Positions 11,803 to 57,372 of a DNA stretch of 64,000 nucleotides are shown in pieces. Below the pieces are notes generated by a model. It was not told where the DNA came from, ran no database searches, and worked only from the letters and a program-made list of their open reading frames with translations. The position numbers and the translations under genes are program-made. Position 1 is the stretch's first letter; each line of letters starts with the position of its first letter. Source of the DNA: a virus (Duplodnaviria > Heunggongvirae > Uroviricota > Caudoviricetes); IMG/VR virus record IMGVR_UViG_3300035182_001709, one strand, 5' to 3'.

Positions 11803-12561
11803 TCACTTCTTGCGTCTCTCCGTGATCGTGTTGATCTTACCGCCACCACGAACGTTCGACATGCCAAGATCAATCAGGACCAGCGTCCCATCGTCACGGG
11901 TCATCATATTGCCCGCATGGTAGTCGTGAAAGTCGATGCCGAGTTCCGTCAGCGTGTTGAACATGTCGCGGAGACCGTACTTGGTGACCAGCGCATTCCA
12001 CTTGCTGTTGATGTCCTTGACGAACTCTTGAGCCTCTGGCGAGTTCAGGTTGCCGCCGTACTTCTTCTTGACTTGAGAGACGATAAACTCCTTCGTCAAC
12101 TTCTTGGCATTGTCCCAAGAGCCCTCGGCTCGCTTGATCCAGATTGGTAGACCCGTGGCAACAAGAGCGTTATTGAAGGCCTTGGCCTCGTCCTTCGGAA
12201 GCGGTTGCAACTTTTCCTGCAGGATTCCGAAAAATCCCGTGTCGCCAAAGCGCCACACCGCGTAGAAGTGAACGACGTTCTTGATGTCCTTACCTACCAG
12301 CGCCGAGGCTGCCTCAGCCTCCTTGTCGTCATTGGTCACCTTCAGGACCTTGCCCCCGCCGATGTCCAAGGCGGTTCCACGCGTTCCCGTTCCGAGAACA
12401 GGCAGTGAATCGATCTTGTTGACGTTGAGACCCAACTTGGCCATGCCCTTTGGGAACTTCTTCAACAGTTCCTTGGACTTATCAGCATCGATCGCCTCAC
12501 CTTCGCGGATGAGGATCTCGAGCAGCGTCCTAAGCCTACCTACCGTGATGACGATTGCCAT
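11803..12561 (-). CDS. protein kinase-like protein (Gly-rich loop LGTGTRGTALDIGGGKVLKV, catalytic HDYHAGNMM, DLG) carrying the N-terminal leader motif (MAIVITVGRLRTLLEILIRE)
   Basis: 252-aa ORF; kinase subdomain motifs by eye. Confidence 0.6.
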   Translation of the reverse strand: MAIVITVGRLRTLLEILIREGEAIDADKSKELLKKFPKGMAKLGLNVNKIDSLPVLGTGTRGTALDIGGGKVLKVTNDDKEAEAASALVGKDIKNVVHFYAVWRFGDTGFFGILQEKLQPLPKDEAKAFNNALVATGLPIWIKRAEGSWDNAKKLTKEFIVSQVKKKYGGNLNSPEAQEFVKDINSKWNALVTKYGLRDMFNTLTELGIDFHDYHAGNMMTRDDGTLVLIDLGMSNVRGGGKINTITERRKK

Positions 12562-12664
12562 GCAATAGGTTATTCGTTTTGGTGTGCCTGGAGGGATTTA
12601 AGCCGAACGTCTCTGGATTATGGGCCCCAGCGGGAACCGTCCCTCCTCCGGGTCAATCTAATAC

Positions 12665-12739
12665 TGGTAGCGGGAGACGGAATCGAACCGCCGACCTCTA
12701 GGTTATGAGCCTAGCAAGCTACCGCTGCTCTATCCCGCT
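12665..12739 (-). tRNA. tRNA-Met (CAU) elongator-type (or Ile2)
   Basis: anticodon arm CUAGG-CUCAUAA-CCUAG; A1-U72 paired; CCA encoded. Confidence 0.7.
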
Positions 12740-12753
12740 ATGATCTATCTAGG

Positions 12754-12825
12754 TGGGTCCGGAGGTAATCGAAACCCCACGCGCCAGTTTAAAAGACTGG
12801 TCTCTTCCACTTGAGTTACGGACCC
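12754..12825 (-). tRNA. tRNA-Lys (UUU)
   Basis: loop CUUUUAA. Confidence 0.75.
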
Positions 12826-12842
12826 AATATCACACCTTTCAC

Positions 12843-12912
12843 CTGCTACCCCCGGATTCGAACCGAGGTCTTGCAGGTTCAAAGCCTGCTGTGCTACCAT
12901 CACACTCGCATT
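12843..12912 (-). pseudogene. tRNA-like fragment or pseudo-tRNA (T-arm plus Gln-like anticodon arm, no D-arm or acceptor pairing found)
   Basis: GGTTCGAATCC T-loop and hairpin GCAGG-CUUUGAA-CCUGC, but no complementary 5' acceptor strand. Confidence 0.3.
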
Positions 12913-12928
12913 TGGTTACTTGCTGTGA

Positions 12929-13004
12929 CTGGTGCGCGAGGGTGGAGTTGAACCACCGACCCCCAAGGATAATCCTTGGTGCTCTTCTGCCTGAGCTACT
13001 CGCA
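12929..13004 (-). tRNA. tRNA with canonical 76-nt cloverleaf whose anticodon loop GAUUAUC places UUA at positions 34-36 (suppressor-like or undetermined; A33, U37)
   Basis: perfect arms, CCA encoded; loop lacks U33. Confidence 0.5.
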
Positions 13005-13005
13005 C

Positions 13006-13081
13006 ATGGTGGGGAGGGCAGGACTTGAACCTACGACCCCCGGCTTATTCTGCCGGCGCTCTTTCACTGAGCTACCTCCCC
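13006..13081 (-). tRNA. tRNA with anticodon loop AGAAUAA (AAU at 34-36; Ile-like or undetermined), CCA encoded
   Basis: perfect cloverleaf; G33; 1-nt spacer to next tRNA. Confidence 0.45.
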
Positions 13082-13128
13082 GTGACCGTCACTGTACCCT
13101 GTCCGCTAGAACGTGTACACTGACTTAG

Positions 13129-13203
13129 TGCGTCTGGTGGGATTCGAACCCACGACCTTCTAGGTAAGAACTAGTTGCTCTGGTTCCACTGAGCTACAAG
13201 CGC
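13129..13203 (-). tRNA. tRNA-Lys (CUU)
   Basis: loop UUCUUAC; one acceptor mismatch. Confidence 0.55.
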
Positions 13204-13264
13204 ATGAATGATCGAACCTCACCTTCGACTTCATGTGTCGTGTTGAGTGGTTACTATTCGATCG

Positions 13265-13340
13265 GTCGGTCCGGCGGGATTCGAACCCGCACCTGTCTCC
13301 TTAAGAGGGAGCTATGCAATACCAGTAACACCTCGGACCG
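13265..13340 (-). tRNA. tRNA-Lys (CUU) probable second copy; atypical (A8, 10-nt D-loop)
   Basis: loop CUCUUAA. Confidence 0.45.
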
Positions 13341-13453
13341 AGGTTGCGACGGAAGTTCTGCTGAGAGTTTGGCCGTCGCTCCGTGGGCTCTCATGTCTGC
13401 GCCATCGCAAGGCTACCGCTCCCACGATTACGGAGTCTGCGGTTTGTCTTGCT

Positions 13454-13540
13454 GACGGCTGGCTCACAGGGCAGGATTCGAACCCGCGTTAGGCTTTCAC
13501 CGTTACGGGTTAACAGCCCGCTGCCTGGCCACTAGGCTAC
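13454..13540 (-). tRNA. tRNA with long variable arm (type II-like), anticodon loop CUGUUAA (GUU); CCA encoded
   Basis: 87 nt; canonical T-arm and acceptor. Confidence 0.45.
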
Positions 13541-13564
13541 CTGTGAATGATGATCCCAAAGGAT

Positions 13565-13653
13565 CTGGCTGCGTCGGAAGGAGTCGAACCCTCATCCCCT
13601 CGATTAACAGTCGAGTGCACTGCCTCTCCGGCTTTACGGTTGTGCTACGACGC
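13565..13653 (-). tRNA. tRNA-like, anticodon arm CUCGA-CUGUUAA-UCGAG (GUU) with oversized D region; CCA encoded
   Basis: 89 nt; good acceptor and T arms. Confidence 0.4.
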
Positions 13654-13654
13654 A

Positions 13655-13728
13655 ATGGCTCCGGCACAAGGATTCGAACCTCGATGATCTAGTAAACAGC
13701 TAGACGTCCTCCCGTTGAACGATACCGG
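13655..13728 (-). tRNA. tRNA, anticodon GUU read (Asn?), loop CUGUUUA; CCA encoded
   Basis: canonical cloverleaf; 1-nt spacer from previous tRNA. Confidence 0.55.
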
Positions 13729-13731
13729 AAT

Positions 13732-13806
13732 GTGGCCCCCGAGGACGGATTCGATACCGTCATATCCGACCTAAGGCGGCCGGCGCTCGAGCTTGAGCTA
13801 CTCAGG
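13732..13806 (-). tRNA. tRNA-like with irregular anticodon arm (6-bp stem, 6-nt loop GCCUUA) and 8-nt T-loop; possible pseudo-tRNA
   Basis: acceptor and D arms fine; CCA encoded. Confidence 0.35.
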
Positions 13807-13855
13807 GATTTGGAACGTAGATTGTCAGAGAACAAGGAAAGGCATGCACCTTGCC

Positions 13856-13945
13856 TGGTGTAGCGGGTGGGATTCGAACCCACAATGTTCACCACATTGG
13901 GACCCGGGTTACAGCCGGGCGAGCACACCGTTGCTCAACCGCTAC
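13856..13945 (-). tRNA. tRNA-Tyr (GUA), long variable arm, CCA encoded
   Basis: arm CCCGG-CUGUAAC-CCGGG; variable-arm hairpin CAAUG/CAUUG. Confidence 0.7.
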
Positions 13946-13971
13946 ATACAGTCGATCATCGAGATGATCGG

Positions 13972-14053
13972 TGGAGTGCCTAGGAGTCGAACCTAGTTGT
14001 GCACAGCAAACTGATTTACAGTCAGCCCCCGAGCCCTACGGGACTAGCACTCC
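13972..14053 (-). tRNA. tRNA-Tyr (GUA), second copy
   Basis: loop CUGUAAA; long variable arm. Confidence 0.6.
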
Positions 14054-14272
14054 ATTTGGAGGACCCACTGCTGTCGACCACCGGTTCAGTTTCGATTTTG
14101 GCTTCTTCCTGCCATCATCTCAGCTGCCCCGGAAGCGGACGGGGCAGCGAGGCCCCCATCACACTTGCGTATTGGCATACGCGGTGGCATTATCTTGCCA
14201 CTGCTTCTGCTGATACTGCTTGTTGACGTTCGTTTTCATGACAGTTTCTTCTTCGTACGACCCTTACGGGCT

Positions 14273-14349
14273 TGGTCGACCGGGGGAGAGTCGAACTCCC
14301 GACAACACGTGTATCAGACGTGTGCTCTAACCGACTGAGCTACCGGTCG
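14273..14349 (-). tRNA. tRNA-Ile (GAU), CCA encoded
   Basis: arm CACGU-CUGAUAC-ACGUG. Confidence 0.75.
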
Positions 14350-14375
14350 GTTGCTGTTACTGTAAGGATACTCTA

Positions 14376-14873
14376 TCAGGTTTCAGTTTCTTGTACACAC
14401 TCTTTTTTAGTTTCGAGTACTTTTTGTCTTCCATGACGTTTGCGGTTCTTCCAACCGAAGGTTGGTGTTTGAGAATGACAGTTAGGACACAAGAACCTTA
14501 GGTTGGTTCGTTCTTGATTCCTGTTGTCGCCGTCAATGTGATCAACCTGCAATGTCAATGACCTGCCGTTGTGAACAGGCGGTTGGCCGCAACACTCACA
14601 TCGATAATCACGGCCAATTTCTAGAAGGAGATCTCGTAGATTTCCAGGTTTCTCACGATCCTTCACCAGGATTTCATCGATTGATTTTGATCGCCGGCCT
14701 CGGTTCCAGGCATGGCGTGTTCCGTCCTTGTAACCACGATTTGGATCGCCACCTTCATGAACTTGCCAGATGTGGGCTCGCAGGCCCATTAACTTGAAAG
14801 TACGTGGACAGTGTGGGCAAGGATAAGTTAGAGCACTCGATTGCTTCATCCACTCTAATGATAACAGTTTCAC
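14376..14873 (-). CDS. HNH endonuclease with N-terminal C2H2-like zinc finger
   Basis: 'LQVDHIDGDNRNQERTNLRFLCPNCHSQ'; sits immediately next to the tRNA array. Confidence 0.6.
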   Translation of the reverse strand: MKLLSLEWMKQSSALTYPCPHCPRTFKLMGLRAHIWQVHEGGDPNRGYKDGTRHAWNRGRRSKSIDEILVKDREKPGNLRDLLLEIGRDYRCECCGQPPVHNGRSLTLQVDHIDGDNRNQERTNLRFLCPNCHSQTPTFGWKNRKRHGRQKVLETKKECVQETET

Positions 14874-14894
14874 CCTACTGCTTCAGTTTTTCGC

Positions 14895-15275
14895 CTAAGC
14901 TTGCTTTTTTCTCTTCTGGGGACCCCGCGTGATCGTCAGCACGGAGTTGTCAGCGCGGATGCGACCCTTGTCGTTGCGCTCTTCACCTTGCCACCGGATC
15001 GTGCCTGTCACGGTCACGCCCCAGGGCTCAAGGTGACGGTCGATGATGTGGTTCAACCACTCAATGTAGTTGTAGAACTTCTCGCCGCCATCCCACTCTA
15101 GGTACTTGCGATCGCCCGTGACGATCCATTGGCAGTAGTAGCCAGGAAACGCCGGGTCCTCGGCAATGTTGCCGCCATGACGGGTTTCTGCCAGCTCGTG
15201 CATGACGGCAGACTCAACCTCGGTCAGTTGACGTGAGAACTTGAGGCGGCCTCTGAACTCGGTGGTGTAACCCAT
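14895..15275 (-). CDS. hypothetical protein (126 aa)
   Basis: ORF. Confidence 0.45.
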   Translation of the reverse strand: MGYTTEFRGRLKFSRQLTEVESAVMHELAETRHGGNIAEDPAFPGYYCQWIVTGDRKYLEWDGGEKFYNYIEWLNHIIDRHLEPWGVTVTGTIRWQGEERNDKGRIRADNSVLTITRGPQKRKKQA

Positions 15276-15457
15276 GACTGTTACTCTAACACGGTCGTCT
15301 GAAGGTTTACACTGCCTCTTGTGAGGGCTTCAGGCGCTCTCACGACGTCGAAATCTCACCGCCATCATATAGACGACCCAGACGATCATCGCCAATGCGT
15401 GAATGAAGTCAATGTATCACGCAATGCCGGGAGGTTGCATCATCACCAGTCGTCCCT

Positions 15458-16963
15458 CTAGTCATAGTTGTTATTCCATTCGACCTTAAAGACCTTGATG
15501 GGTCCGATGCCAACAACCTCTTTTTCATCTGGGAATTCATTGAAGCCGTCGACCTTGTAAAGCCCACCAGGACCCGTCAGGAAACGCTTTGGATTCTGTT
15601 CTGTCTTTGCGTGTAGGATGACGTTGAAGTTTCCATCACCCGAGCTCTTGAAGCCCTGTGCGACACTCTTGCTGGTCGACCACGAGGACGAGCCACCCCG
15701 TGGAGTGAATGTAAACGACTTGGTCACAGAACCGTGATTAGACAGCTTCTTGACCTTCAGTGCCATCTTCAACCAGTCGGCGTTGACCGACATGCCACGA
15801 TAGATGCTGCCGTTGGGCTCGTGAAAGACATCCTCGTACCATCCTTTATCGAGGAAGGTCTTCAGCAACTTGGCGTCTGCAGCGTTAAGTGGCTCGTTCT
15901 CGTTAAAGTGAGCGCTGATGTCGTTGTATAGCTCTTCTTCGCGTTCAGTGTCAGCCTCGAACGGTTTATTCTTACGGTGTCCCGGAAAGGCAAGCCGACC
16001 CAGGGGTGCCTTGGGCGGCGCCTCGGCAGCCTTCTCGACCTGTTCTTTTTCCTTGGCGATGATCTTCGGAACCTTCGCCAGGTCTGGCGGCAATGCGCGA
16101 AGGTTCGTCAGGAACCCGTCAAGCTGGTTCATCATGTTCTTTTTGCTAAATTCGTGGTTTGCCTTCTTGACCTGCGAAAACTTGAAGTCAAACAGCTTAA
16201 CGATCTTGGCGACCGCGACCTTGGAGCTAAACTTTCCGTGAAAGTCATCCATGACTTGAGCATCACGTAGGACGCTCAATGATCCTAGCCGAGAGAACAA
16301 ATTCTCTGCACGCGCCTTAGCGTTTTCACCTGAGCCATCGCGGGGCATGATGACATCGCGCAATTCTTGACTTCCGGCTAGCATCTCAGCGACCGTGGTT
16401 GCGAGTTCAACCACTTCGGCCTTCAACTTGGGATCGCCGGTAACAAACGCCTTCTCAAGCGTGGCATGTTGGACCAACGCTTTTTTCGCCAAGACTTCAA
16501 ACTTGGCGAGCGAAGCAGACATGACCTCGGCGGTGGGTGCCGCGAGCGCTGCGACCGCAGTAGACAAGGCCTTGATGGCCTTCGCGGCCTTCTGCAGGCC
16601 CATCGCATCGACTACGACGTTGGTCGCTATCCTTTCCGTTCCGTGCTCGCCATAGATGACGCTATAAATGAACTCATTGACCTCAGCTTGAGGATCGGGA
16701 TAGCTCGTCACAGCAGGAATGTGTGCATTGACGATTTTGCGAGCCTTCTCGTAAAACTTCTGAATGCCGTCGTACCACTTCTTGTTGAAGTCTGTCAGAG
16801 TACTTGTATTGCTGATCGAGTTGAACAACTTCTTGTATTTCTTCTCAAGTTCAGCGATCGGCTTGATCGCCTGAATCAAGGGGTCAAGCAGGCTCGGCAT
16901 TTGAGCCCTCTTTGTTAGAGGCGACTTCTTGATCGAAGGAACAGACTTGAAGGGCGGCGGCAC
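15458..16963 (-). CDS. ADP-ribosyltransferase-domain protein (R-S-E class; Alt/Mod-like), 501 aa
   Basis: C-terminal motifs YRGMSV (Arg), SWSTS (STS), PDEKEV (ExE). Paralog of 53340..55685 (shared LYND..AHF...SFTFTP...GPG.LY.V.GF.E). Stop is TAG. Confidence 0.65.
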   Translation of the reverse strand: MPPPFKSVPSIKKSPLTKRAQMPSLLDPLIQAIKPIAELEKKYKKLFNSISNTSTLTDFNKKWYDGIQKFYEKARKIVNAHIPAVTSYPDPQAEVNEFIYSVIYGEHGTERIATNVVVDAMGLQKAAKAIKALSTAVAALAAPTAEVMSASLAKFEVLAKKALVQHATLEKAFVTGDPKLKAEVVELATTVAEMLAGSQELRDVIMPRDGSGENAKARAENLFSRLGSLSVLRDAQVMDDFHGKFSSKVAVAKIVKLFDFKFSQVKKANHEFSKKNMMNQLDGFLTNLRALPPDLAKVPKIIAKEKEQVEKAAEAPPKAPLGRLAFPGHRKNKPFEADTEREEELYNDISAHFNENEPLNAADAKLLKTFLDKGWYEDVFHEPNGSIYRGMSVNADWLKMALKVKKLSNHGSVTKSFTFTPRGGSSSWSTSKSVAQGFKSSGDGNFNVILHAKTEQNPKRFLTGPGGLYKVDGFNEFPDEKEVVGIGPIKVFKVEWNNNYD

Positions 16964-16981
16964 AGGACTAAATATTCAGAG

Positions 16982-17133
16982 CGCTCGTCACTTCTTTTTG
17001 GGAGTTACCCCGTTCAGCACCTCGTCGGCTGCCACAATAACCGTGACGATGGCTGCACCCAACTTGAACCACGCCAAGACGCGGGGCGTGCGAAGCGAGG
17101 CGACAATACGAACGACCTTCTTCAGTGCATCCT
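16982..17133 (-). CDS. small single-TM protein (about 50 aa, not in ORF track)
   Basis: manual translation MDYKDALKKVVRIVASLRTPRVLAWFKLGAAIVTVIVAADEVLNGVTPKKK. Confidence 0.3.
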
Positions 17134-17158
17134 TGTAGTCCATTTCAGATGTATCTCC

Positions 17159-17557
17159 TCAGGCTGGCTCGCGCCACCGTGAATGACGTTTTTCTAGCAG
17201 CGCGGCAATGACCTCTTGAGCGCGCTCGTCCAAGTTCTTGGCATCGTGGTGGATGCCCTTCGTGTTGTTGCAACGCTCGCACGCCAGCGCCAAATTGTGC
17301 AAGTCGGTTCCACTGCCGCCCGCTGTCAGCGGCATAATGTGCTCAATGGTGGCCTCAGTGCGTCCTGACATCGTCACGGTCAACATGGTGCCGCAGTGGA
17401 TGCACTTTCCCACGTGAATCGACGGGTCAGTGTAGCCCACATAGAAGCTGTTGTCGGTCCGGACGATGTCGAGCACCAATTGTTCCCTTGAAGAACCTTT
17501 CGGCCTCGGGTCAGTGGCTTCTGCCTTCGACTTTTTGCCTTTTTTCTTGAGGCCCAT
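17159..17557 (-). CDS. HNH endonuclease
   Basis: 'TIEHIMPLTAGGSGTDLHNLALACERCNNTKG'. Confidence 0.6.
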   Translation of the reverse strand: MGLKKKGKKSKAEATDPRPKGSSREQLVLDIVRTDNSFYVGYTDPSIHVGKCIHCGTMLTVTMSGRTEATIEHIMPLTAGGSGTDLHNLALACERCNNTKGIHHDAKNLDERAQEVIAALLEKRHSRWREPA

Positions 17558-17595
17558 GGTGTCAACAATACCATGGTCGGAATGTGGCGTTCAAC

Positions 17596-17964
17596 CTACT
17601 TAGGCGGTGCTTGCCCCTCGGGCGTTTCTGCTTCGCCTTCAGTACCTTCTTTGCCCGTGAGTTCATCGGCAGGCATCCCGTCAGGCGCGTCCTCGCCCGG
17701 CGTGTTGACCGCGTTATCGGACGGGGGCTTCTGGCCGATGTAGACGGCCGCATCATCGGGTCGAAATGGGTCGCCGTCGCCGCCCATGGGTCGACCAGGC
17801 GACTTGTACCAAAATCCGTGGATGTCAGCGCCACGCTCAATTTCGTATGGATAGAACCCGTCGGGTTTGGTCGGATCGGTGCCCGAGGCACCGGTGGGTC
17901 CGCCGAACTCGCGAAGCAGGACGCCACGGATGATGCGACGGAGTTCGCCAAGCCTGATCCTCAT
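17596..17964 (-). CDS. acidic Gly/Pro-rich protein with N-terminal leader MRIRLGELRRIIRGVLLRE
   Basis: ORF; member of leader family. Confidence 0.55.
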   Translation of the reverse strand: MRIRLGELRRIIRGVLLREFGGPTGASGTDPTKPDGFYPYEIERGADIHGFWYKSPGRPMGGDGDPFRPDDAAVYIGQKPPSDNAVNTPGEDAPDGMPADELTGKEGTEGEAETPEGQAPPK

Positions 17965-18389
17965 CGCCGTGCCCCTTCACGGCGAGCGGCAGAGCGATGC
18001 TTGAAGGCCGACTGCTCGGCCTCGATGGCCCGTTCGTCGCAGTCATTGGCTGACTTGTTGTCGCCCAACTTAGCGAACAACGTGGAGGCCTTGTTGAAGT
18101 ATCCGTAGGCACGCATGAAGGTGTTGTCCGCGTGGAGGTAATCGGACCGCGAGGCATAACCCTGGGCAACTGACATGGCCTTAAGGCCACGCTCACGGTA
18201 GAACTCGGCCTCGTGTCGACCGGGATCGAGCTGACCCGATTCTTCCTCATCGACCTCACCGAGGCGCTCGAGGTCCTCTTCATCCGCGGGTTCACCGCTG
18301 TTGGCGGCCCACTTGCCGGGCGGAACGGCCTCCTGGTTGAGCGCCTCACGAATGATCTGGCGAATGCCGGAAAACGTCGATGCCATGCA
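17961..18389 (-). CDS. TPR-like repeat protein with leader MASTFSGIRQIIREAL
   Basis: ORF 17961..18524, start moved to internal Met; ATGA overlap with downstream paralog. Confidence 0.5.
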   Translation of the reverse strand, partial: CMASTFSGIRQIIREALNQEAVPPGKWAANSGEPADEEDLERLGEVDEEESGQLDPGRHEAEFYRERGLKAMSVAQGYASRSDYLHADNTFMRAYGYFNKASTLFAKLGDNKSANDCDERAIEAEQSAFKHRSAARREGARR

Positions 18390-18597
18390 AGTAACTATCG
18401 AGTCAGTTCTGCCCAACGTGCCTCGAGAAACCGAGAGTACACTAACAACGCTAGACCATAGCACCCGACGTGGGATATCGTTGGCCTCGACCAGCAACGT
18501 CTCACCCGATTCTGTGACGCCCATGTCTAGGACGTAAGTGGCCGCGTACGTGTTGGTATCATCCGGGAAGTTTCTTGTCGAGCATGTCTCATCGTAT

Positions 18598-19038
18598 CTA
18601 ACGCGAGGCCAGCATTACACCGATGAGGACCAGGCCGATGCCAATCACTGACTTCAATGATGGTTGCTCGCCCAGGAACAACGCCGACAACATCAAGGTG
18701 ATAATGGGTGACGCCGAGCCCAATGCGCTGACGAGCCCCACGTCGTTGCGAATCTGCAGGGCATACATGAAGGCGATGGAGCCCACGATGTTCAAGCAGA
18801 CCGCCGCGATCGACCACAACATCCCGCGAGCGTCCCAGTCATTGTGTTGGACGAGATTCTGTTGGAGCAGGGCTAGATACAACGGGATCAATGCTGCGTG
18901 GATGATTCCCGAGATGGCCTCGAATTGCAGAGGGCGCAGACGATTCAGCGCAACCTTGCGCATCAACGTGACGATGCCGAAGACGACCGTGGAAAAGCCG
19001 ATCAACAGCGCCCGCTCTCGGGAGATTGGATCGCTCAC
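18598..19038 (-). CDS. EamA/DMT-like small membrane protein (4 TM helices)
   Basis: hydrophobic ORF. Confidence 0.5.
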   Translation of the reverse strand: MSDPISRERALLIGFSTVVFGIVTLMRKVALNRLRPLQFEAISGIIHAALIPLYLALLQQNLVQHNDWDARGMLWSIAAVCLNIVGSIAFMYALQIRNDVGLVSALGSASPIITLMLSALFLGEQPSLKSVIGIGLVLIGVMLASR

Positions 19039-19057
19039 TTAATGAAGTATCCCGACG

Positions 19058-19492
19058 TCAGCCTGGAACTCGAACATCGATGTTGATCCACCACGGGGGC
19101 ATCGGCGGTTGCACGCTGAACTTCACGTGGATCTCACCTGATTCTGCAGGATGCGATTCAAAGATGACGCCGTTACCTCGACCGTCGTTGGAGACGATCA
19201 ATGCCTTGATGTTTCCCAATTTGTCCAAGACTGGGTCGCCGGGCGCAGCGCCCAGCTCTAGGTCGTTGACCTCGCGTAGGGCCGGCACGCGACCCGCCCT
19301 GACAGATTCGATCTTGAATTTGTTGATGGTGCCACCGGTGACGAGGTTGTGCAGCGTCGAATTTACGGCGCTCTGGATGGCGCCCACGTTGAACGCCTTG
19401 TCAGGACCGAGGATATAGTTGTTGCACGTCCTCTTGACGAGGTCAGCGACCAACTTTCGAACGCGAGCAGTCTCGAGTTCAACTGACGCCAT
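19058..19492 (-). CDS. hypothetical protein
   Basis: ORF 19058..19534, start at MASVELET. Confidence 0.45.
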   Translation of the reverse strand: MASVELETARVRKLVADLVKRTCNNYILGPDKAFNVGAIQSAVNSTLHNLVTGGTINKFKIESVRAGRVPALREVNDLELGAAPGDPVLDKLGNIKALIVSNDGRGNGVIFESHPAESGEIHVKFSVQPPMPPWWINIDVRVPG

Positions 19493-19540
19493 CACAGTTC
19501 CTCTCTTTCCTCTCCACTCCGTCCATGAGAGCATCGTACA

Positions 19541-20827
19541 TCAGCCGGTCTCAAATAGACTGACGTAACGCTGTGCCACACGGTCCCACGTGTTTTCGTC
19601 AATGTAACGCAGCTGACGTTCCACCTGATCATGGCGCGCCAACGGGTTCGAAAACATCCTGTCGAGCGCCTCAGCGAGCGCCTCGGGCGTGTCAGCCTTG
19701 AGGGTGGGCACGTCAGAAAAGTGGTTGACGTTGGTGGTGACCACAGGGGCACACTTCGCCATCGCATAGCGTGCGGCGCCCGAGACGCCGAAGACCTCGT
19801 GAGCGGGGTGCGAGACGTACGGGAAGATGACGGCAGCGTTCGTCCGAATGTATGAGTCCAAGGCGGCATCGCTCTGGTAGCCCCTGATGATCGCCACGTT
19901 ATCGCGGAGGCCCAGGGAATCAACGAGGCGCATCAGCTCATCGTAGTAGACCTGGTGCTCGACGGCGTTGAAGGGCGACTCAGAGAACAGGCCTGTGAAG
20001 AAAACGTCCTCGTATTTCTTCTTGAGTTCCGCGGCAGCTCGAATCGACAGTTCCCAACCTTTATAGCGAAAGCCGAAGCCGAACTGCATGAAGGTGTGAT
20101 CAGACTTGTAGAAGTTCCACAGGCGTTCCTTGGAATCGACGGGCTGGCAACCGTGTGGGATGACAGTGACCTTGCCGGGCACGCCCTTTTCTTCCTTGAG
20201 GACCTTTGCTGCGCCCTCGAGGTGGACGACGATCTCTGGAATCGCGGCCTCAACGATCGTCTTGTCGCGGTGGTGAAAAACGCTGTGCATTGTGACAACG
20301 GGCCGCGTCCACTGCGACAGCCGCGCCATAAAGGGCAGCCACCGGCTGGCATCGGGCCAGATGCCGAACTCGTGTTGAATCCAGACGATATCGGGAGCAT
20401 ACGCCTCGAGCTCGCGCTCCAGATCGGCCAAAGATTCGCCACGCTTCCAACAGGAGACGACCTTCTCGTGAGGAAGCAACACTTCGCCCATCACATGGAC
20501 GGGCCCAGTCGGCTTGTCATTGCGCTCGATGAACAGCTTGAAGTCACCCACGCGGCGGGCGACCGCGGGCCACAGTTGCTCAGAGTAGGTGGCGATGCCG
20601 CAGCGCATCTTCCAGTTGCCGACGAACGCCACGCGCAGGTGTTTGGCAGGCCTGAAGACCTGCCGCGAGACCAGGTGACCGTTGTTGACACGGTAGCCCG
20701 TGATCAATTCTGCGTTGGTCAACCCGTCGAGGCCTTCAGGAACCTCGATGACCGTCAGATTGGGACCGCTGAACCGGTGCGTTGACACCGTAACAATGTG
20801 ATCACCTCGAGCGCCAATCCACCTCAT
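19541..20827 (-). CDS. glycosyltransferase, GT-B fold (GT4-like)
   Basis: 428 aa; C-terminal 'EVFGVSGAARYAMAKCAPVVTT' nucleotide-sugar-binding signature. Confidence 0.7.
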   Translation of the reverse strand: MRWIGARGDHIVTVSTHRFSGPNLTVIEVPEGLDGLTNAELITGYRVNNGHLVSRQVFRPAKHLRVAFVGNWKMRCGIATYSEQLWPAVARRVGDFKLFIERNDKPTGPVHVMGEVLLPHEKVVSCWKRGESLADLERELEAYAPDIVWIQHEFGIWPDASRWLPFMARLSQWTRPVVTMHSVFHHRDKTIVEAAIPEIVVHLEGAAKVLKEEKGVPGKVTVIPHGCQPVDSKERLWNFYKSDHTFMQFGFGFRYKGWELSIRAAAELKKKYEDVFFTGLFSESPFNAVEHQVYYDELMRLVDSLGLRDNVAIIRGYQSDAALDSYIRTNAAVIFPYVSHPAHEVFGVSGAARYAMAKCAPVVTTNVNHFSDVPTLKADTPEALAEALDRMFSNPLARHDQVERQLRYIDENTWDRVAQRYVSLFETG

Positions 20828-21870: not shown

Positions 21871-22199
21871 TTGATCCGCAGGACCAGGATGTCCTTCTGA
21901 TCGTGGTGCGGGTGGTGGCTATGGTGCTCGTGTGAGTGACACGGGCGAACGACAACCTCCCAGTCGAGCCAGTCATCGTCTGACCCGTCGGGATTGCAGG
22001 GGTAACAGCCTTCTTCAATCGGGCCGAGGTCCACCTTGATGTGTTGTTCAGGGTGGTGATAGACACCGCGAGAACGAATCAGGTCATCCTCAATGTCAAC
22101 CTCGCCGGTGCCGACCGCGAGAACCTCTCCTCTGACTGTAGTCCTCATGATGACCCTACCTTTTGAACCCATGGAGATGATAAGTATCGTCCTTCTTCC

Positions 22200-22694
22200 T
22201 CAGGGAGAGGTCAGGTGCCGCGAACGAACGTACAACCTTTGTTGCGCCCTGGCGCCGTTGCGGTACTGTTGCAGGTCTTCCATCATGACGGAAAACATCT
22301 CGACTGTGCAGTCGTTGTCCTCGAGGGCGCGCTGAAAGGCCTCGGCGACCTCACCGTCCTCAAAGATGCCGATGATCCCATCGAATGCGCCCTCGATGGC
22401 GTCCTTTGCCTCCTTCAGGCCGCAACCCGTGTACTCACGGATGATCTTGATGGAAGCGATCTTCTTTGCAGGGTCGAAGTTCGTCAGCCTGACGATACAC
22501 GGGGTCTGGCCCAGGTTGAACATCCGCGAGATGGCCATGCCGGTGAACTTGAACCACTCGGCGATTTTGATAAGCTCCACGTCATCGGCGAAGGTGATCC
22601 AACGTCCGTCTTCTTCTGAGCCGACTGAAAACGAAATGCGCAGGCGTGTGGAACGTGGGCGGTGCTCGCCCGACTGCAGGTCATTGTCGTTCAT
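22200..22694 (-). CDS. protein with ribosomal bL12 (L7/L12) C-terminal-domain-like region
   Basis: 'ASIKIIREYTGCGLKEAKDAIEGA...FEDG..EVAEAFQRALEDNDCTVE' aligns by eye to the bL12 CTD. Confidence 0.5.
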   Translation of the reverse strand: MNDNDLQSGEHRPRSTRLRISFSVGSEEDGRWITFADDVELIKIAEWFKFTGMAISRMFNLGQTPCIVRLTNFDPAKKIASIKIIREYTGCGLKEAKDAIEGAFDGIIGIFEDGEVAEAFQRALEDNDCTVEMFSVMMEDLQQYRNGARAQQRLYVRSRHLTSP

Positions 22695-23282
22695 TTCAAA
22701 ATAATACCTCAGGTTGATGTCAATATTCACTGCAGCGCGTCTCAGTGACCAACACAGCATCTCGTGTATAAAGATGAGTTCCATGGGGAACCATCTTTGA
22801 GCTTCTCTTGCAACTTAATGCCGCTAAGCGCGATGGGGCCGATGGCGATGCATTATGCCTCATCTTCGTACTCACCGAAGCCCTCTAGGTCATAGAGGCC
22901 GTCGTTGCCATTGATGCGTTTGCCCTTAACATCAAATGGATGTAGGACGAAAGTGCAGATGGACGCGGCGCAGGTAGAGTACAACAGGCCTGAACATACG
23001 AATTTATCACCGCGCAGTTAGGTGACCAATCAATCGACTTTTCGACTAATTTCCGAGGGTCTCTCACGAGGGTTGGCGCCATGGGATGCATGGGCTTGCC
23101 CTTATAGGTGTACAAGACCCTAAGCGCGTCAATACGGACCGGTCATCCACGTGAATAGCTCAACTGAGCCTTTCACTGCGAATACGTCTCTCATCGGGCA
23201 GGCCAGTGAGTGAGCGCAGTCCTTGATGATTCCATGAAACCCGCGTGCCCACCATCATATCACCGCGCGAGATGGTGAACTT

Positions 23283-23567
23283 TCATCGACCCCGCGAGCC
23301 GGATCCCATGACGTAGAGCATCGAACCCGTCAGCAGGCCATTTTCGACCGCGATGATGGCAGGAGGGGTCTCAGGATCGCGGGACCACGAGGCCGAGACG
23401 AAATCGCGGCCGCGATGAGTCACAGAACCTGAGGGAATGGCACCTTCAGGGATGCCCAACCTGAGGCCCTGCAGCTTCCAGGGCACCGTCAGTAGAGAGC
23501 CCGACAGAACACAAGGTGGGTTCCAGCAGCCGTTCCAGAGCAGATGATGTACCACGGGAAAAGACAT
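23283..23567 (-). CDS. hypothetical protein (94 aa)
   Basis: ORF 50 nt downstream of 23617..23958. Confidence 0.35.
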   Translation of the reverse strand: MSFPVVHHLLWNGCWNPPCVLSGSLLTVPWKLQGLRLGIPEGAIPSGSVTHRGRDFVSASWSRDPETPPAIIAVENGLLTGSMLYVMGSGSRGR

Positions 23568-23616
23568 GCCTCTAAGTATGGCCCGACCACATGATCAAGA
23601 AGCGCTCGTCTCATCG

Positions 23617-25202: not shown

Positions 25203-25238
25203 GATCCAGTTATATCCGGTTCGCTGTTGAAGATTCAC
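25203..25238 (-). promoter_or_regulatory. promoter cassette: box A GTGAATCTTCAAC - CGAAC - TATAAC-like -10 - ATG (leaderless)
   Basis: about 22 near-identical copies between 23.96 and 38.9 kb. Confidence 0.6.
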
Positions 25239-25882: not shown

Positions 25883-26523
25883 GAGTCTAGTCTACCACGA
25901 TCGCCCCGCACATTGCACAGATTTCCGCGACAATTCTCCAGAGGACCGTGAAGCCGACACCTCCCGTGAGGCAGCCTCGCAGTCGGAGTTCGGACCCGTC
26001 ACGGGAGGCGAACCCGGGAAAGAAGCATAGACGTCGATCGTCCCGCCGCGGTGCCTGAAGTGGCGACTTCCATGATCGTCGCACCTTCTCATTGCCTCGC
26101 GGCGTATCTCCAGATACGGATCTCTGTCTCTATCTCTGTCTCTGCCCAGCTGACGTTGTGGACCGTGGACCAAGCACACATTGACCGTAAGGGTCACCCG
26201 GACGTTCTTAGAGTCCGCGCCACGATGGAGGCAGTCTTCTTAACAGCGGGCTTCTTGACCGTGTTTAGATCATGTCTCACGCCGCCCGTGGAGATTCACA
26301 GTCAGTCTGCGTTCCATTGTCCCGTCTTTACCATGTGCTTGACCAGCGAGCCGAGCTTCGTCTGCGGCTTCTCGTTCAAGACAAGAAAGGCATAGATGAT
26401 CAGAACGCAGGCTCCCGCTGCAAGCAATCGCTTACTATCGTCCGTCATTGGGCCTTGAAGAAGTCATCGACTGAGCAACCGTGGCTCTCAGCCCGCAATG
26501 CTGCCACTGCGGGCGCTCTGGCT

Positions 26524-27807: not shown

Positions 27808-27844
27808 CTGAGTCACCCGGTTGAACTGTGGAACAAGGTTCATC

Positions 27845-30557: not shown

Positions 30558-30648
30558 GGGTCTAGTCTACCTCATCTTCTGGGAGAAATACACAGCCCCG
30601 TGAGAGCTTCTAGCGCTCGCGGGCTTGCAACTCATTGCACTGCTTGGG

Positions 30649-33094: not shown

Positions 33095-33168
33095 GTCTAG
33101 ATCCTAAACACGCCGGGACTTGAAGATTCACAGTGCAAACTTTCGTCCATGTGTGGTAGACTAGAACC
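33095..33168. promoter_or_regulatory. back-to-back divergent cassettes sharing CACAGTG core (minus GTGAATCTTCAAG...; plus GTGCAAACTTTCG...GTGGTAGACTAGaacc-ATG)
   Basis: strand switch of the small-gene array. Confidence 0.55.
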
Positions 33169-36427: not shown

Positions 36428-36440
36428 GCAGGTAACTAGG

Positions 36441-38341: not shown

Positions 38342-38373
38342 GAGTCTATCCTACCAGGATCAGAGATGAAGGT

Positions 38374-53339: not shown

Positions 53340-55685
53340 ATGAGGGCGAAGGTACAAGAAGTCGCACTGCTGTTGGAGATCAGTTTCAACGGTTTCGTTG
53401 ATCGCTTTAAGCAGCTTGCCAAGCAGATCAAGGCGACAGCTATCGTCAAGGCCATCGACTCGCTAGACGATGCGCCCCCAGGCCTCAAGGCCAAGCTACA
53501 TGACGCATTCGATGCCTGGGTGGATTCTGGCGGGCTGAGCAACAGCGGTTACTACAGTGAAGTTCTCTTCACTAAGCTGAAGGCTGCTTTGGGCAGTCTG
53601 TCAGACGATCAGCTCGATGATCTCTTTTCAAAGATCACAAACTTTGAGGCGGTCCCAAGCCACGCTGACAAGAGCATTCAGGACATTGCGTTCAACTCGA
53701 TCCTGAAGCGACTGTCACACATCCCAATTCCGATCCTGCGTGACCTCAGGGAAGACCTGCAGGACCTGCAGCTTAACGTCAAGAACCACGCCACGGCTCG
53801 TGACTTCTTGAATTACGCCCTGGGCGCAGTGATTGAAAGCAACCCGACTGAAAAGCACTTCAGGTTGCAGTCGTCCAAAGGTTACTTCACGCGCTGGTTG
53901 GAACAACTGGACAGCGAGGACGCTGAGTCCGAGATCGACAAGCTCGACAAGATCATCGCTGGGTTTGAGGCCAAGAAGGCCGAGGCCGCCTGGGACGTGG
54001 TCGACGCAGGCCGCGAATTGCTCGACCTTCTGAAGGAGAAGGTTCCGAGCGACCTAAAGCCCTACTATGAGACCGTAATCTCATACGACTACCACATTGG
54101 TATGTCGGACTACAATTCCATCAACACGTTCAATGCGTATCTTAACGAGGATGAAAACGAGTTTCTCGAAGAGTACGCAAGGATTGCAGAACGCTCGAGC
54201 AGGCTAGCGCGCAAGGTCATCACGCAGATCAAGGCAATGCTCGAGCGCGAGACTCCCAAAGCCGCCAGGTACGTGCAGACCCTGAAGGGTGAACTGACCG
54301 AGGAACAGCTGCAGGACCTGCAGACGCTCGCGGATTACGCTCGCTTCACTCACAAGTTGGGCGGCGCCAAAGTTTCAAGGGACTACTTCGGCAAGAGCAT
54401 TTGGAACTTTCCCAACGACTTTACTGACAAAATCGACAAGATCACCAAGATCGATCCCGAGGTCGGACCTAAGTCAATGACACGCTTGCGAGCTGTCATG
54501 GCCTACTCGCAGATCATCAACTCCTCTGAGTTGCATGAATACATCAAGAACCTGAGAGACGATCTCGCTCAGGTCAAGGAACAGCTCAAGGCAAAGGACG
54601 ATCCTCAATTCATTGCGTTGATCGATGGCCTGATCAAGTTGTCGGACACCATCAGATCGATGCCCGATGATGACATCGTGGATACGTTTGAAACGCTTGG
54701 ACCCGAGAAGTCATCGAACGAGACCTACTTTTGGGGCAGCATCATTTCGACAATGCGCTCCAAAGGTGATGACTTCACCAAACAGCCCAATGATCTCAAA
54801 CGCGCCCTGAAAGCATGGGCACTGACCTCAGAAGGTGACAGGCCAAAACTGCTGCAGCGCGCCAAGAAGATCGCCAGCAGTTGGATCAAAAAGACGAAGG
54901 CGAAGAACGCCGAGCTGTTGAAGAAGGCGCCTCCTGAAGCAGAGCCCTCAGCGCCCCTACAGCAGTGGGCCTTTGCCGACCAGCGCAAGGGAAAGGTTCC
55001 GTATGAGGCAAACTCGAAGGAAGAGCAGAAGTTGTACAATGACCTGTATGCCCACTTCGTCAACAACGATCCGATCTCACCCGCTCACGCTAAGCTGATC
55101 CAGTCCTTCCTGCAAAAGGGTCAATACGCTAGCGTCTTCCGCGAGCCTAAGCAGGCGTACGTCCTCCGTGGCATGAACGTTCCTGCAGATTATCTGCGCA
55201 AGGCCTTGAAGCTAAAGCCCGGAGATGATCTGCCACCGAAGGGAAACAAGGCCGCATCATTCACGTTCACGCCGTTGTCAGGTCGCGGGGCCACTAGCTG
55301 GTCATCAACGTCGCAAGGTGCTGTCAAGTTTTCAAACGATGGAGGTTACGGTTCTTACGCCATCATCATGGTCGCCTCTGTCAAGAAGAATCCAAACAAG
55401 TTCTGCATGGGACCGGGCGCTCTCTACAACGTTCAGGGCTTCGATGAGTACGAGACTGAAGACGAGGTCATTGCCTTGGGCGAGATCAATGTCTCAAAGG
55501 TCTTCTGGTCAATCAACTCCATCACCAAGTCGACGCCGGGCCTGCCAAAGGGCGGTGTTGGCCACAAGACGTTGAAGAAAAAGAAGAAGGTGGCGACCAA
55601 TAAGTCAGTGGCTAAGAAACCGATCGCCAAGAAGAAACCTGTGGCCGCCAAGAAGCTCGTCAATAAATCCACGAAAAAGAAGTGA
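53340..55685 (+). CDS. ADP-ribosyltransferase-domain protein (R-S-E; Alt-like), 781 aa, with Lys-rich H1-like C-terminal tail
   Basis: LRGMNV / SWSSTS / TEDEV motifs; N-terminus MRAKVQEVALLLE resembles leader; paralog of 15458..16963. Confidence 0.7.
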   Translation: MRAKVQEVALLLEISFNGFVDRFKQLAKQIKATAIVKAIDSLDDAPPGLKAKLHDAFDAWVDSGGLSNSGYYSEVLFTKLKAALGSLSDDQLDDLFSKITNFEAVPSHADKSIQDIAFNSILKRLSHIPIPILRDLREDLQDLQLNVKNHATARDFLNYALGAVIESNPTEKHFRLQSSKGYFTRWLEQLDSEDAESEIDKLDKIIAGFEAKKAEAAWDVVDAGRELLDLLKEKVPSDLKPYYETVISYDYHIGMSDYNSINTFNAYLNEDENEFLEEYARIAERSSRLARKVITQIKAMLERETPKAARYVQTLKGELTEEQLQDLQTLADYARFTHKLGGAKVSRDYFGKSIWNFPNDFTDKIDKITKIDPEVGPKSMTRLRAVMAYSQIINSSELHEYIKNLRDDLAQVKEQLKAKDDPQFIALIDGLIKLSDTIRSMPDDDIVDTFETLGPEKSSNETYFWGSIISTMRSKGDDFTKQPNDLKRALKAWALTSEGDRPKLLQRAKKIASSWIKKTKAKNAELLKKAPPEAEPSAPLQQWAFADQRKGKVPYEANSKEEQKLYNDLYAHFVNNDPISPAHAKLIQSFLQKGQYASVFREPKQAYVLRGMNVPADYLRKALKLKPGDDLPPKGNKAASFTFTPLSGRGATSWSSTSQGAVKFSNDGGYGSYAIIMVASVKKNPNKFCMGPGALYNVQGFDEYETEDEVIALGEINVSKVFWSINSITKSTPGLPKGGVGHKTLKKKKKVATNKSVAKKPIAKKKPVAAKKLVNKSTKKK

Positions 55686-55695
55686 TAAACGCACT

Positions 55696-56565
55696 ATGAA
55701 GATAAAGGTAAAAGACCTACGCCGCACCATCCGCGAGGCACTCGTTACCGAAGTCGGTATCGATAAGCTCAAGGGCATGAAGGGCACCTTGGGCTCCACC
55801 CATGAGATGAACGTGGCCAAATTGGTGGGCTCGGAGGAGAAGTTCTTCGTCAAGTTCTCTGACATCGCAGAGGACCTTTGGAACGAAGGCGACCCCGATC
55901 CTAGCATGCAGTGCATGAGCGAGTACCTCGCCTACAAGCTGTATGCCCTCTACCCGGGCGTCAAGATTCCCAGCCGTATTGAGTTGGTCTATGATCCTAA
56001 CAACTCACGGGTCGGTATTGCCACGGCTGCTGTCAAAGGCAAGATGGCGCTCGGTCGCATCAAGCCTCAGGCGCTGGCGAAGCAGCTCGAGGCAGGCGTC
56101 TACGTCGACATTTTCCTGGCCAATTACGACGTCATCGGTACTGGCGCCGGCAACCTGATATCGTCGGACGACGGCTCAGTCACCCGTATCGACCCGGGTT
56201 CATCGTTCAAGTACCGTGCACGGGGTGGTCGCAAGGGACCTGGCTTCAACGACAAGGCTGGTGAGCTGAACACAATGTTGGACCCTGACTTCGGCTATGG
56301 CGAGGCAGCCGGGTCAGTCTATCAGTACGCTGACCTCAAGGTCGCAGCCAAGGAGTTCATGACAGTAAGTTGGCCCGCAATCGCCGCGCGTATCGATGAG
56401 GTTCAGGGGTCAGTCGCGGCTGAACTTGAGGAGAACGGCATGGACGACCTGCTGCAACAGTGGCACGCCGAGGTCAACGACATCAAGAAGGTCCTGGCTG
56501 GCCGTTACAAGGTTGTTACAATGCACGCGCAGAAGGTCCTCGCTGCCGACAAGAAGACACGTTGA
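55696..56565 (+). CDS. atypical protein-kinase-like protein with leader MKIKVKDLRRTIREAL
   Basis: catalytic-loop-like 'DIFLANYD', 'IDPGSS'. Confidence 0.5.
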   Translation: MKIKVKDLRRTIREALVTEVGIDKLKGMKGTLGSTHEMNVAKLVGSEEKFFVKFSDIAEDLWNEGDPDPSMQCMSEYLAYKLYALYPGVKIPSRIELVYDPNNSRVGIATAAVKGKMALGRIKPQALAKQLEAGVYVDIFLANYDVIGTGAGNLISSDDGSVTRIDPGSSFKYRARGGRKGPGFNDKAGELNTMLDPDFGYGEAAGSVYQYADLKVAAKEFMTVSWPAIAARIDEVQGSVAAELEENGMDDLLQQWHAEVNDIKKVLAGRYKVVTMHAQKVLAADKKTR

Positions 56566-56942
56566 TATTGCGACAACGATTCATTGCCACAATCAACTCC
56601 ACTCGCGGGGCCTAACTCTTTTGTTCAAAACGATAGAGGCTCTCAAAGAACTTGTCAAGTATTTTGACCCGTTTGACGGGTATTCCGACGTGTTCAGCGT
56701 ACTACTACAGGTACTTGGCATCACGTTGGTCGCTCTCTAGGCGATGCATGTCACCGCAAATGCAGGACTTTCCATCCTAGAGACCGCTGGCCCACCAGTA
56801 ACCTGGACCGCCGAGGTCACTTCGTCTGACCAGGCGCTCAACGCCTTGAAGGCCGCGTAGCAGACGTTAATCACCGCCAACGCCAAGAAGAACATCATGA
56901 TCTCGTAGTGACTACACCACGTGAACAGCATCTCTGCGTTCG

Positions 56943-57199
56943 TCACTTTGAGCGCCAGGCAACACGGCCCCGCGTCAGGTCGTAAGGCGAGACTTCAATC
57001 GTCACTCGATCGCCGGGCAGCAGGCGAATGTGGTGGAGCCGCAGCTTGCCCGACAGGGTGCACAGCACCTTGATGCCATTGTCACAGATGACCCTAAACA
57101 GGGTTCCCGGCAACGCTTCGTCGATCATGCCCTGAAGTTCGATCGAGTCCTCGCGCTCGGGCTGCTCTTGCGCCGAGTTGCTCCAGTTCTTCTTGTTCT
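56943..57199 (-). CDS. infA: translation initiation factor IF-1
   Basis: '[66 protein letters not shown]' aligns to bacterial IF-1. Confidence 0.75.
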
Positions 57200-57372
57200 T
57201 CTTTGCCATCGTCTTGTGTCTCGTCGTCACCGAGTTCGGGCGGGGGTGCGGCACCATTGCCGCCATTGTAGCCACCCTCTTGTCCGCCGCTAAAGATTCC
57301 TGCGCTCCAGCGCATGTTGCGCTCGACTTCTTCTCGAATTAGAGCGCGCAGTTCGCGGATGGTGATCCTCAT
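57200..57372 (-). CDS. leader-motif ORF ([17 protein letters not shown]..., Gly-rich) running into the IF-1 gene in another frame
   Basis: ORF 57094..57372; the downstream part is an Arg-rich out-of-frame overlap. Confidence 0.35.

Follow-up and report, generated by a model that had tools for sequence, protein, structure and literature searches.

The window analysed here, a stretch of 64,000 nucleotides from a tailed virus (Caudoviricetes; IMG/VR record IMGVR_UViG_3300035182_001709), encodes a set of proteins that begin with the same short peptide, called the leader below. This leader is probably a docking tag for the prohead core, comparable to the capsid-targeting sequence (CTS) of phage T4 and used by a range of T4-related phages, among them the phage of ~300 kb from which the window seems to derive. 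Binding to the core and presence of the tagged proteins in the virion would be the first consequences of such a role; removal of the leader by a protease and delivery of enzyme cargo into the host are less certain steps. The preliminary description of this DNA had proposed a shared CTS-like tag on eight proteins. Its modularity, its restriction to viruses, the head genes that neighbour it in relatives and the gp23 segments in the window favour that idea, although the family has fewer members than proposed and a protease gene is missing from the window.

The leader in the window is real, and it is carried by fewer genes than first claimed. A six-frame scan combined with a log-odds profile, built from 75 leaders all taken from outside the window, finds canonical copies in four open reading frames (ORFs), starting at 17964 (minus strand, 35.2 bits), 52148 (minus, 30.2 bits), 55696 (plus, 31.2 bits) and 57372 (minus, 32.5 bits). 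All four sites coincide exactly with start codons, whereas 30 triplet-shuffled windows reached 8.6 bits at most (mean -1). The ATG at 18386 ranks fifth in the window with 6.9 bits, which is not significant alone, and its ORF is regarded as a degenerate, decayed copy because its orthologues, the 'VPPGKW...EDLERLG' family, bear the canonical leader MKIKLSELRRIIREE. Five of the eight proposed members thus stand, four canonical and one degenerate, and three fall away with negative profile scores: the protein at 11803-12561 (-13.7 bits), whose N-terminus resembles the leader loosely at best, the supposedly shorter version on 53340-55685 (-35.6 bits) and the copy placed at an internal methionine of 15458-16963 (-25.4 bits). 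The ORF given as 57200..57372 has its actual end at 57094. Window leaders differ from each other in synonymous codons (e.g., CGT/AGG and CTT/CTA), which places selection on the peptide and conservation at the amino-acid level; orthologues retain the leader across 40-70% divergence.

The consensus reads M-K-I-[RTK]-[LI]-[SG]-E-L-R-[RK]-I-I-R-E-x-[LIV]-x-E and is followed by a flexible Gly/Pro/Ser linker. The peptide of ~16-18 residues is basic (pI ~10) and amphipathic, with hydrophobic positions 1, 5, 8, 12, 15 and 19 in a heptad pattern. In an AlphaFold2 model of the protein starting at 17964 (32 sequences), residues 5-20 form a helix with a predicted local distance difference test (pLDDT) score of 81-85, the best confidence of the chain, and the remainder is poorly ordered and of low confidence. 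The leader is accordingly predicted to be a helix detached from its cargo. In the same protein the leader and a G/P/S linker are followed by the conserved motif 'GFYPYEIERGxDIHGFWYKSPGR' and then by an acidic tail, and the leader is kept in 69 homologues. Its gene is translationally coupled to that starting at 18386, and in proteins P0036 and P0039 the two families are fused, each with a leader of its own. The leader of the 52148 protein is followed by TGGG and a Pro/acidic-rich cargo, a family found also in loci L015 and L037, and the orthologues of the 57372 protein (P0073-P0084; 71-72 aa) carry the canonical form. Across the whole collection 149 of 173 copies stand at the extreme N-terminus, and the 24 internal copies occur in multi-module proteins. 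Five metagenomic proteins (P0148, P0152, P0162, P0165 and P0183) contain two to three internal copies each. In one AT-rich group each repeat lacks a methionine and follows a conserved 'P-[MI]-Q-E-S-[VI]-K-P-K-T-Q' junction; this points to genuine polyproteins with several cargoes and not to gene calls that were fused.

The leader is modular. A scan of IMG/VR with a degenerate DNA pattern for M-[KR]-I-x3-E-L-R-x-I-I-R retrieved 49 loci (440 kb), in which the profile marks 105 high-scoring sites, 99 of them at an ATG or GTG start. When the first 18 residues were removed from 102 leader proteins, the remaining sequences fell into at least 44 cargo clusters without mutual BLAST similarity. Leader genes often stand in tandem arrays (e.g., L007, L019, L022 and L036). 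At the protein level, 95 clusters at E<=1e-3 came out of a full HMMER scan that covered 1.84 billion representative proteins, and a search of a word-indexed protein database with a leader-only profile, for which leaders were padded with X, yielded small proteins only from 70 candidates. Cargo proteins are for the most part short (median 98 aa) and acidic (median pI 4.56), with few recognisable domains: a PAP2 phosphatase (7e-9), an ADP-ribosyltransferase-like (ART-like) domain and a possible atypical kinase. PHROGs gave no match for any cargo. The picture of a set of host-modifying enzymes was therefore overstated, as most cargo proteins are small and acidic and resemble the T4 prohead-core protein gp67; for the labels 'TPR' (tetratricopeptide repeat) and 'DNA mimic', which had been attached to some of them, no test gives support.

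In the collections scanned, every true leader lies on a contig that is viral or probably from a phage. The same pattern applied to GTDB genomes (596 Gb) gave 17 matches, of which 14 are due to chance and three are true leaders, all three on contigs of metagenome-assembled genomes that are probably phage contigs binned into these genomes; a cellular origin was rejected on this basis. An origin from eukaryotic giant viruses was likewise rejected, the match to a capsid protein of nucleocytoplasmic large DNA viruses (NCLDV) in L016 being a chance pattern match without a leader-scoring site; a second NCLDV capsid match among ORFs of the leader loci was not traced to any locus. The motif strings were not found in a searchable collection of 8 million full-text papers.

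The connection with head assembly comes from related loci. A Pfam screen of 112 long ORFs from the leader loci recovered Gp23, Portal_T4 and Peptidase_S77. In L012 a gene with a leader-like start (MSNSALKKLIRELVEEEL) is followed by an S77 protease (6.9e-25), an 80-aa canonical leader gene overlapping the protease stop codon, DUF3008, a gp22-like scaffold gene and gp23 (3.9e-75). In L009 the gp20 portal gene comes after two leader genes, and two leader-like genes lie between the portal and a gp21 homologue (phmmer 6e-16), that is, in the slot that core genes 67 and 68 occupy in T4. A prohead protease of the S77 type is thus encoded in related leader-bearing contigs. To avoid circularity, an independent sample of 80 IMG/VR loci (L079-L158; 1.0 Mb) was gathered solely by protease similarity. 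Each of the 33 strict leader hits with an initial methionine (33/33) is on the same strand as the protease gene. Of these, 16 are within 1 kb of that gene, either directly upstream of it or as the gene that follows it, 15 are 6-10 kb upstream, past the portal gene, and two are elsewhere. No strict hit falls over a portal, scaffold or major capsid protein gene in these loci. The gene directly after the protease, in the slot of T4 scaffold gene 22, often starts with the leader variant MKKSELKxxIKPLIKECIKEV.

Two side observations concern the same loci. The S77 protease of L012 (1166-2221) is split by an intein (Intein_splicing 1.3e-7) directly after the conserved GELDHPE motif. A family of ~140 aa encoded after the protease starts with MKKSELKxxIKPLIKECIKEVxxEEG and ends with '...GVDPxDxGVDIS' (e.g., L103:5303, L104:10597, L119:6820, L122:3993 and L152:10558), with no match in cultured phages.

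In the mechanism proposed here, the leader helix would bind the scaffolding core during head assembly, and any protein fused to it would thereby be built into the prohead. A protease of the T4 gp21 type (S77), cutting after (L/I)-x-E, would then probably remove the helix, either at I12-R13-E14 or at phi16-x-E18, where phi is a hydrophobic residue. Small acidic cargo may act like the T4 core proteins gp67 and gp68 or like internal proteins, and enzyme cargo (ART-like, kinase-like and PAP2) may act like T4 Alt, staying in the head and entering the host with the DNA.

The T4 CTS is MKTYQEFIAE, and it presumably shares with the leader only the MK start and the terminal I-x-E. The propeptides of T4 internal proteins (IPs) comprise 10-19 residues, make their proteins bind the scaffolding core and are cut off by gp21 after L/I-X-E, and Alt is an ADP-ribosyltransferase that is packaged and injected (PMC9026906). 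Internal proteins of T-even phages are diverse, with only the CTS conserved in common, and are encoded in variable loci (PMC3012670). The leader system resembles this arrangement in several respects: a short N-terminal peptide is the sole feature common to unrelated proteins, many of the genes are small and variable and stand in clusters, an ART-like family is found among the cargo, (I/L)-x-E stands at the end of the peptide, here as part of a periodic helix pattern, and gp21 (S77), gp20 and gp23 adjoin tagged genes in relatives. It departs from T4 in a much larger repertoire of cargo and in the internal copies of proteins with two to three modules, and in its occurrence in uncultured marine and freshwater T4-like phages and in ~300-kb genomes. 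The CTS principle itself is established in T4; what appears to be new here is a distinct and longer helical consensus, together with its breadth (dozens of cargo families and multi-copy proteins), its distribution in uncultured T4-like phages of up to ~300 kb and a dedicated promoter-like element.

In the giant phages phiKZ and SPN3US the cleavage motif is S/A/G-x-E, and to our knowledge their propeptides are long and have no one conserved leader sequence in common. As proposed for the leader proteins, many head-internal and ejection proteins of these phages undergo cleavage behind a short motif with a final Glu, the enzyme being a gp21-related protease (PMC9026906; PMC5694885; PMC10052503). 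The window differs from the phiKZ type in that it encodes a sigma-70 factor, and no phiKZ-type hallmark genes were seen in it.

A number of observations weigh against a CTS-like role. The leader, an amphipathic helix of ~16-18 residues with a linker, contrasts with the minimal CTS of 10 residues and has a different consensus, and, unlike the T4 internal proteins, which are reported to be basic (PMC9026906), most of its cargo is acidic. The tripeptide [LI]xE is present between residues 10 and 22 in 81 of 83 leaders, but phi-x-E recurs periodically at 5-7, 12-14 and 16-18, following the helix pattern; it is built into the helix and hence provides no independent evidence of a cleavage site, and the terminal (I/L)-x-E site of the preliminary description cannot be set apart from this periodicity as a discrete one. 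Before internal copies phi-x-E is enriched, ending 0-4 residues upstream in 10 of 24 cases against a background of 14%, an enrichment confounded by in-frame ribosome-binding sites (GAGG, read as E-G), which would give the same pattern. Most leader genes of the ~300-kb phages lie amid small orphan genes, far from recognised head genes; the IP genes of T4 are likewise scattered. Searches of the cultured phages in INPHARED (tblastn with leader-containing queries) found none, and the head modules of the phages immuto, Mel-JY01 and Melnitz have no canonical leader, with weak variants or none. As for the window phage itself, its gp23 pieces are only fragments, which prove contact with a T4-like lineage and not a T4-like head. 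Neither the 64-kb window nor the ~10 kb recovered ahead of its start yielded a gene for a prohead protease, a portal or a full-length capsid protein. Attempts to locate the head module of its lineage gave no candidate in a homologue search with a gp23 fragment, unrelated low-GC T4-like phages or nothing in two IMG/VR pattern scans, and an unrelated contig of 34% GC as the best match in a metagenome scan.

A rival explanation, unlikely but deserving serious attention, is that the leader proteins are purely structural parts of the prohead core or scaffold, similar to gp67, gp68 and gp22, with the leader as a coiled-coil helix, and that they are degraded and expelled at maturation without any delivery. 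Most cargo is indeed small, acidic, poorly ordered by prediction and gp67-like, the small leader proteins share with gp67 the build of an N-terminal helix and a poly-acidic tail, and the heptad pattern of the leader suits a coiled coil. In L009, L012 and many loci of L079-L158, leader genes stand in the interval from portal to protease or directly behind the latter, which are the positions of T4 gp67, gp68 and gp22; the leader variant at the start of the gene in the scaffold 22 slot is a case in point. A search with these three T4 proteins (phmmer) found no homologues. What speaks against a purely structural role is that the leader occurs also on genes far from the head module and on enzyme-like cargo, namely the PAP2, ART-like and kinase-like proteins, and that the unrelated tagged families, at least 44 in number, form variable tandem arrays typical of the internal-protein loci of T-even phages (PMC3012670).

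An improbable alternative is that the helix serves protein interaction or oligomerisation in general and has nothing to do with the capsid, addressing a hub of the host (RNA polymerase, ribosome or chaperone) or of the phage. Such a module would fit the internal and multiple copies of helix and linker, the many leader genes among non-structural genes and the presence in the window of GroEL, AAA+ ATPases, a sigma factor and L7/L12. It leaves unexplained, however, the clustering at protease and portal genes in the independent sample and the placement of most copies at the extreme N-terminus, and no candidate partner was identified.

Very improbable is the notion of an encapsulation peptide for another kind of shell, be it a vault-like cage of Major Vault Protein (MVP), a bacterial microcompartment (BMC) or an encapsulin. 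Cargo peptides of BMCs and encapsulins likewise route diverse proteins into a shell by means of a terminal helix or short peptide with a flexible linker, and the encapsulation peptides of microcompartments are amphipathic helices of ~18 residues followed by a linker; in sequence style the leader presumably resembles the N-termini of PduD and PduP. The window also contains an MVP homologue (MVP_shoulder 3e-28), and eukaryotic vaults carry an ART (PARP4). Yet the neighbours of the leader in relatives are T4-type phage head genes, and no BMC or encapsulin shell family appears in the Pfam hits of ~40 window ORFs or among the 25 most frequently matched families listed for the 112 leader-locus ORFs. 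MVP is not among the 25 most frequently matched of 50 Pfam families in leader-rich T4-like contigs, and the leader cargo has no recognised INT-type MVP-interaction domain; targeting to eukaryotic vaults, moreover, uses a C-terminal domain of ~150 aa and not a helix. A link to the vault gene was rejected, as the phage genome LR756500 has an MVP gene and no leader in the surrounding 42 kb; that phage, of 24% GC, is unrelated. Finally, two explanations can be set aside: that the similarity arises by chance or from low complexity, and that it reflects a DNA or RNA element conserved where genes begin. The motif is indeed short, with K, R, E, I and L abundant. However, the window sites score 30-35 bits against the shuffle maximum of 8.6, 99 of 105 sites begin at ATG or GTG, the codon differences are synonymous, which rules out an element at the nucleic-acid level, and orthologues keep the leader as they diverge.

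If the leader is a CTS, a profile search would list the proteins packed, and probably injected, by thousands of uncultured T4-like phages, among them early-acting host-takeover and anti-defence proteins that are otherwise invisible without virion proteomics. The CTS principle would then reach far beyond the T-even phages, with larger cargo sets, enzymes and possibly polyprotein precursors, and the tag would offer a natural handle for the engineering of protein delivery. A bolder version, put forward tentatively and rather doubtful as it stands, holds that one tag of ~17 residues marks the whole head-internal and injected proteome of a large, entirely uncultured branch of T4-related phages with genomes of up to ~300 kb, on single proteins as well as on multi-cargo polyproteins that the prohead protease would cut into units of leader plus cargo. 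Were this true, dozens of families of anti-host effectors (ART-, kinase- and phosphatase-like) could be read directly from metagenomes, and foreign proteins could be loaded into these capsids by means of the tag.

Table 1. Leader genes, related proteins, gp23 segments and promoter-like elements in the window
Feature	Position	Strand	Details
Leader-bearing protein, 122 aa	17596..17964	-	leader 17908-17964 = MRIRLGELRRIIRGVLLRE
Degenerate leader protein, 141 aa	17961..18386	-	leader 18330-18386 = MASTFSGIRQIIREAL; 'VPPGKW...EDLERLG' family
Leader-bearing protein, 104 aa	51834..52148	-	GTG start; leader 52092-52148 = MRIKLGELRHIIRTILIE
Leader-bearing protein, 289 aa	55696..56565	+	leader 55696-55752 = MKIKVKDLRRTIREALVTE; cargo possibly protein-kinase-like
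Leader-bearing small acidic protein, 92 aa	57094..57372	-	leader 57316-57372; 'ERNxRWSAGxFxGG' family
ART-like protein, 781 aa	53340..55685	+	no leader; C-terminal ART-like domain 54951-55520; R / S-W / E-x-E
ART-like paralogue, 501 aa	15458..16963	-	no leader; C-terminal ART-like domain 15461-16009; GTG start 16963 (more likely)
Atypical-kinase-like protein, 252 aa	11803..12561	-	between tRNA clusters; N-terminus MAIVITVGRLRTLLEILIRE
Small ORF, C-terminal ~48 aa a T4-type gp23 segment	50721-51080	+	Pfam Gp23
Second small ORF with C-terminal gp23 segment	49923-50258	+	Pfam Gp23
Third small ORF, weak gp23 segment	50434-50724	+	gp23 residues ~329-360
Class II element TAGTTA	18392-18397	-	6 nt upstream of 18386 ATG
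Class II element TACTTA	52153-52158	-	before 52148 leader gene
Class II element TAGTTA	57378-57383	-	before 57372 leader gene
Class II element TATTTA	53328-53333	+	before ART-like gene 53340
Class II element TATTTA	16969-16974	-	N5 before GTG 16963 of ART-like gene
Class II-equivalent element TAACCTA	12566-12572	-	before kinase-like gene 12561

The two ART-like proteins of the window, both without a leader, are 44% identical over 211 aa. Elsewhere the same domain bears a canonical leader (L008:183, L036:992 and L065:5117) or a leader-like N-terminus (L081), and its R-G-M, S-W and E-x-E columns are invariant across four diverged members. The label 'ART' given to the domain earlier depends on these invariant residues; it finds no supporting match in Pfam or PDB sequence searches, and its AlphaFold2 model, based on a two-sequence alignment, is too poor for a fold search (pLDDT 49). 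PHROGs gave three matches only on 20 other window ORFs, a marginal one on the 15458 protein among them. The start of the latter is more likely the GTG at 16963, as a class II promoter-like element (TATTTA) lies 5 nt upstream. The ART-like gene at 53340 and the leader gene at 55696, which starts 10 nt downstream of it, form one unit. The protein encoded by 55696-56565 shares with that of 11803-12561 the motif 'AGN..(S/T)xDDGxxxxID(P/L)G', on which its kinase-like label depends; for 11803-12561 the Pfam ABC1 match (E=0.0013) is below the cut-off, and 55696-56565 has no match in Pfam, PHROG or PDB, so that the designation of both as kinase-like is weakly supported.

Two classes of promoter-like elements precede genes of the window. 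Class II, a TA[GCT]TTA-like sequence, stands 4-6 nt before the start of every leader-gene unit of the window and of both ART genes, and in relatives the equivalent 'ATA[CG]TTA[AT]-N5-6-ATG' precedes leader genes in L006, L011, L013, L020, L024, L027, L029, L034, L036, L037, L038 and L050, among others. The shared element implies, as far as sequence can indicate, that the leader genes are co-regulated, and it is possibly a late promoter. Class I, which is distinct from it and used by other genes, has the form GTGCAA-N~17-(T)GGTAGACT/GGTAGGAT-N7-ATG; in at least 10 genes, GroEL included, its end stands exactly 7 nt upstream of the ATG (examples at 25889-25896, 30564-30571, 33155-33162, 38348-38355, 47195-47202 and 62412-62419). 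No Shine-Dalgarno sequences were found anywhere in the window, and promoter-like elements ending a few bases before the starts imply leaderless or near-leaderless mRNAs.

The gp23 segments of the window form the C-terminal 30-50 residues of their small ORFs. For the ORFs at 50721-51080 and 49923-50258 the Pfam Gp23 matches reach 4.5e-7 and 2.1e-8 (30.0 and 34.4 bits; cut-off 24.4), and the segments cover gp23 residues ~70-117 and ~286-313, respectively. They are 44-64% identical to gp23 of L012, of Flavobacterium phage immuto and of Microcystis phage Mel-JY01, which suggests that the window phage belongs to a T4-like lineage or has exchanged genes with one. The segment at 50721-51080 includes a VQPMxxPxxxVF stretch, which we take to be the Gol region of T4 gp23. 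In each ORF the segment comes after a small 'PGDxV...VLW(T/S)'-like domain at the N-terminus, and this domain also seems to be present in ORFs nearby. The small ORFs could be remnants, decoys or something else.

Judged by its gene content and closest contigs, the window is part of an uncultured T4-related jumbo phage of ~300 kb. An identical copy of the 122-aa leader protein is found on metagenome contigs of up to 309 kb, and relatives occur on contigs of 278-305 kb, which have the sigma factor and the ligase in common along with a phage lysozyme; tblastn with the RadA-like protein and the sigma factor of the window returned uninformative matches only. The window has a GC content of ~58%, and its real genes show the codon-position order GC3>GC1>GC2. 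Its genes include those for an ATP-dependent DNA ligase, a sigma-70 family factor, glycosyltransferases, a MoxR-type AAA ATPase and another AAA ATPase, a RadA/KaiC-like ATPase, GroEL, an L7/L12 homologue, an HNH endonuclease, the MVP homologue and 21 tRNAs. The sigma-70 family factor (6579-7382, minus strand) has regions 2, 3 and 4 all present; the L7/L12 homologue is encoded at 22200-22784 (minus), and the HNH endonuclease (17159-17557, minus) lies beside leader genes. The MVP homologue (44546-47125, plus; 859 aa) matches, besides MVP_shoulder, the Pfam families Vault, Vault_3 and SPFH/Band_7, and among phages it is matched, at ~41% identity, only in 'huge phage' genomes of 462-735 kb (LR756500, LR756501 and LR756503). 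The 21 tRNA genes form an array (10247-14349, minus) that includes a suppressor with the anticodon UUA (12930-13005), which would read TAA; among the stop codons of 100 called genes TAA is the rarest (8), next to 76 TGA and 16 TAG.

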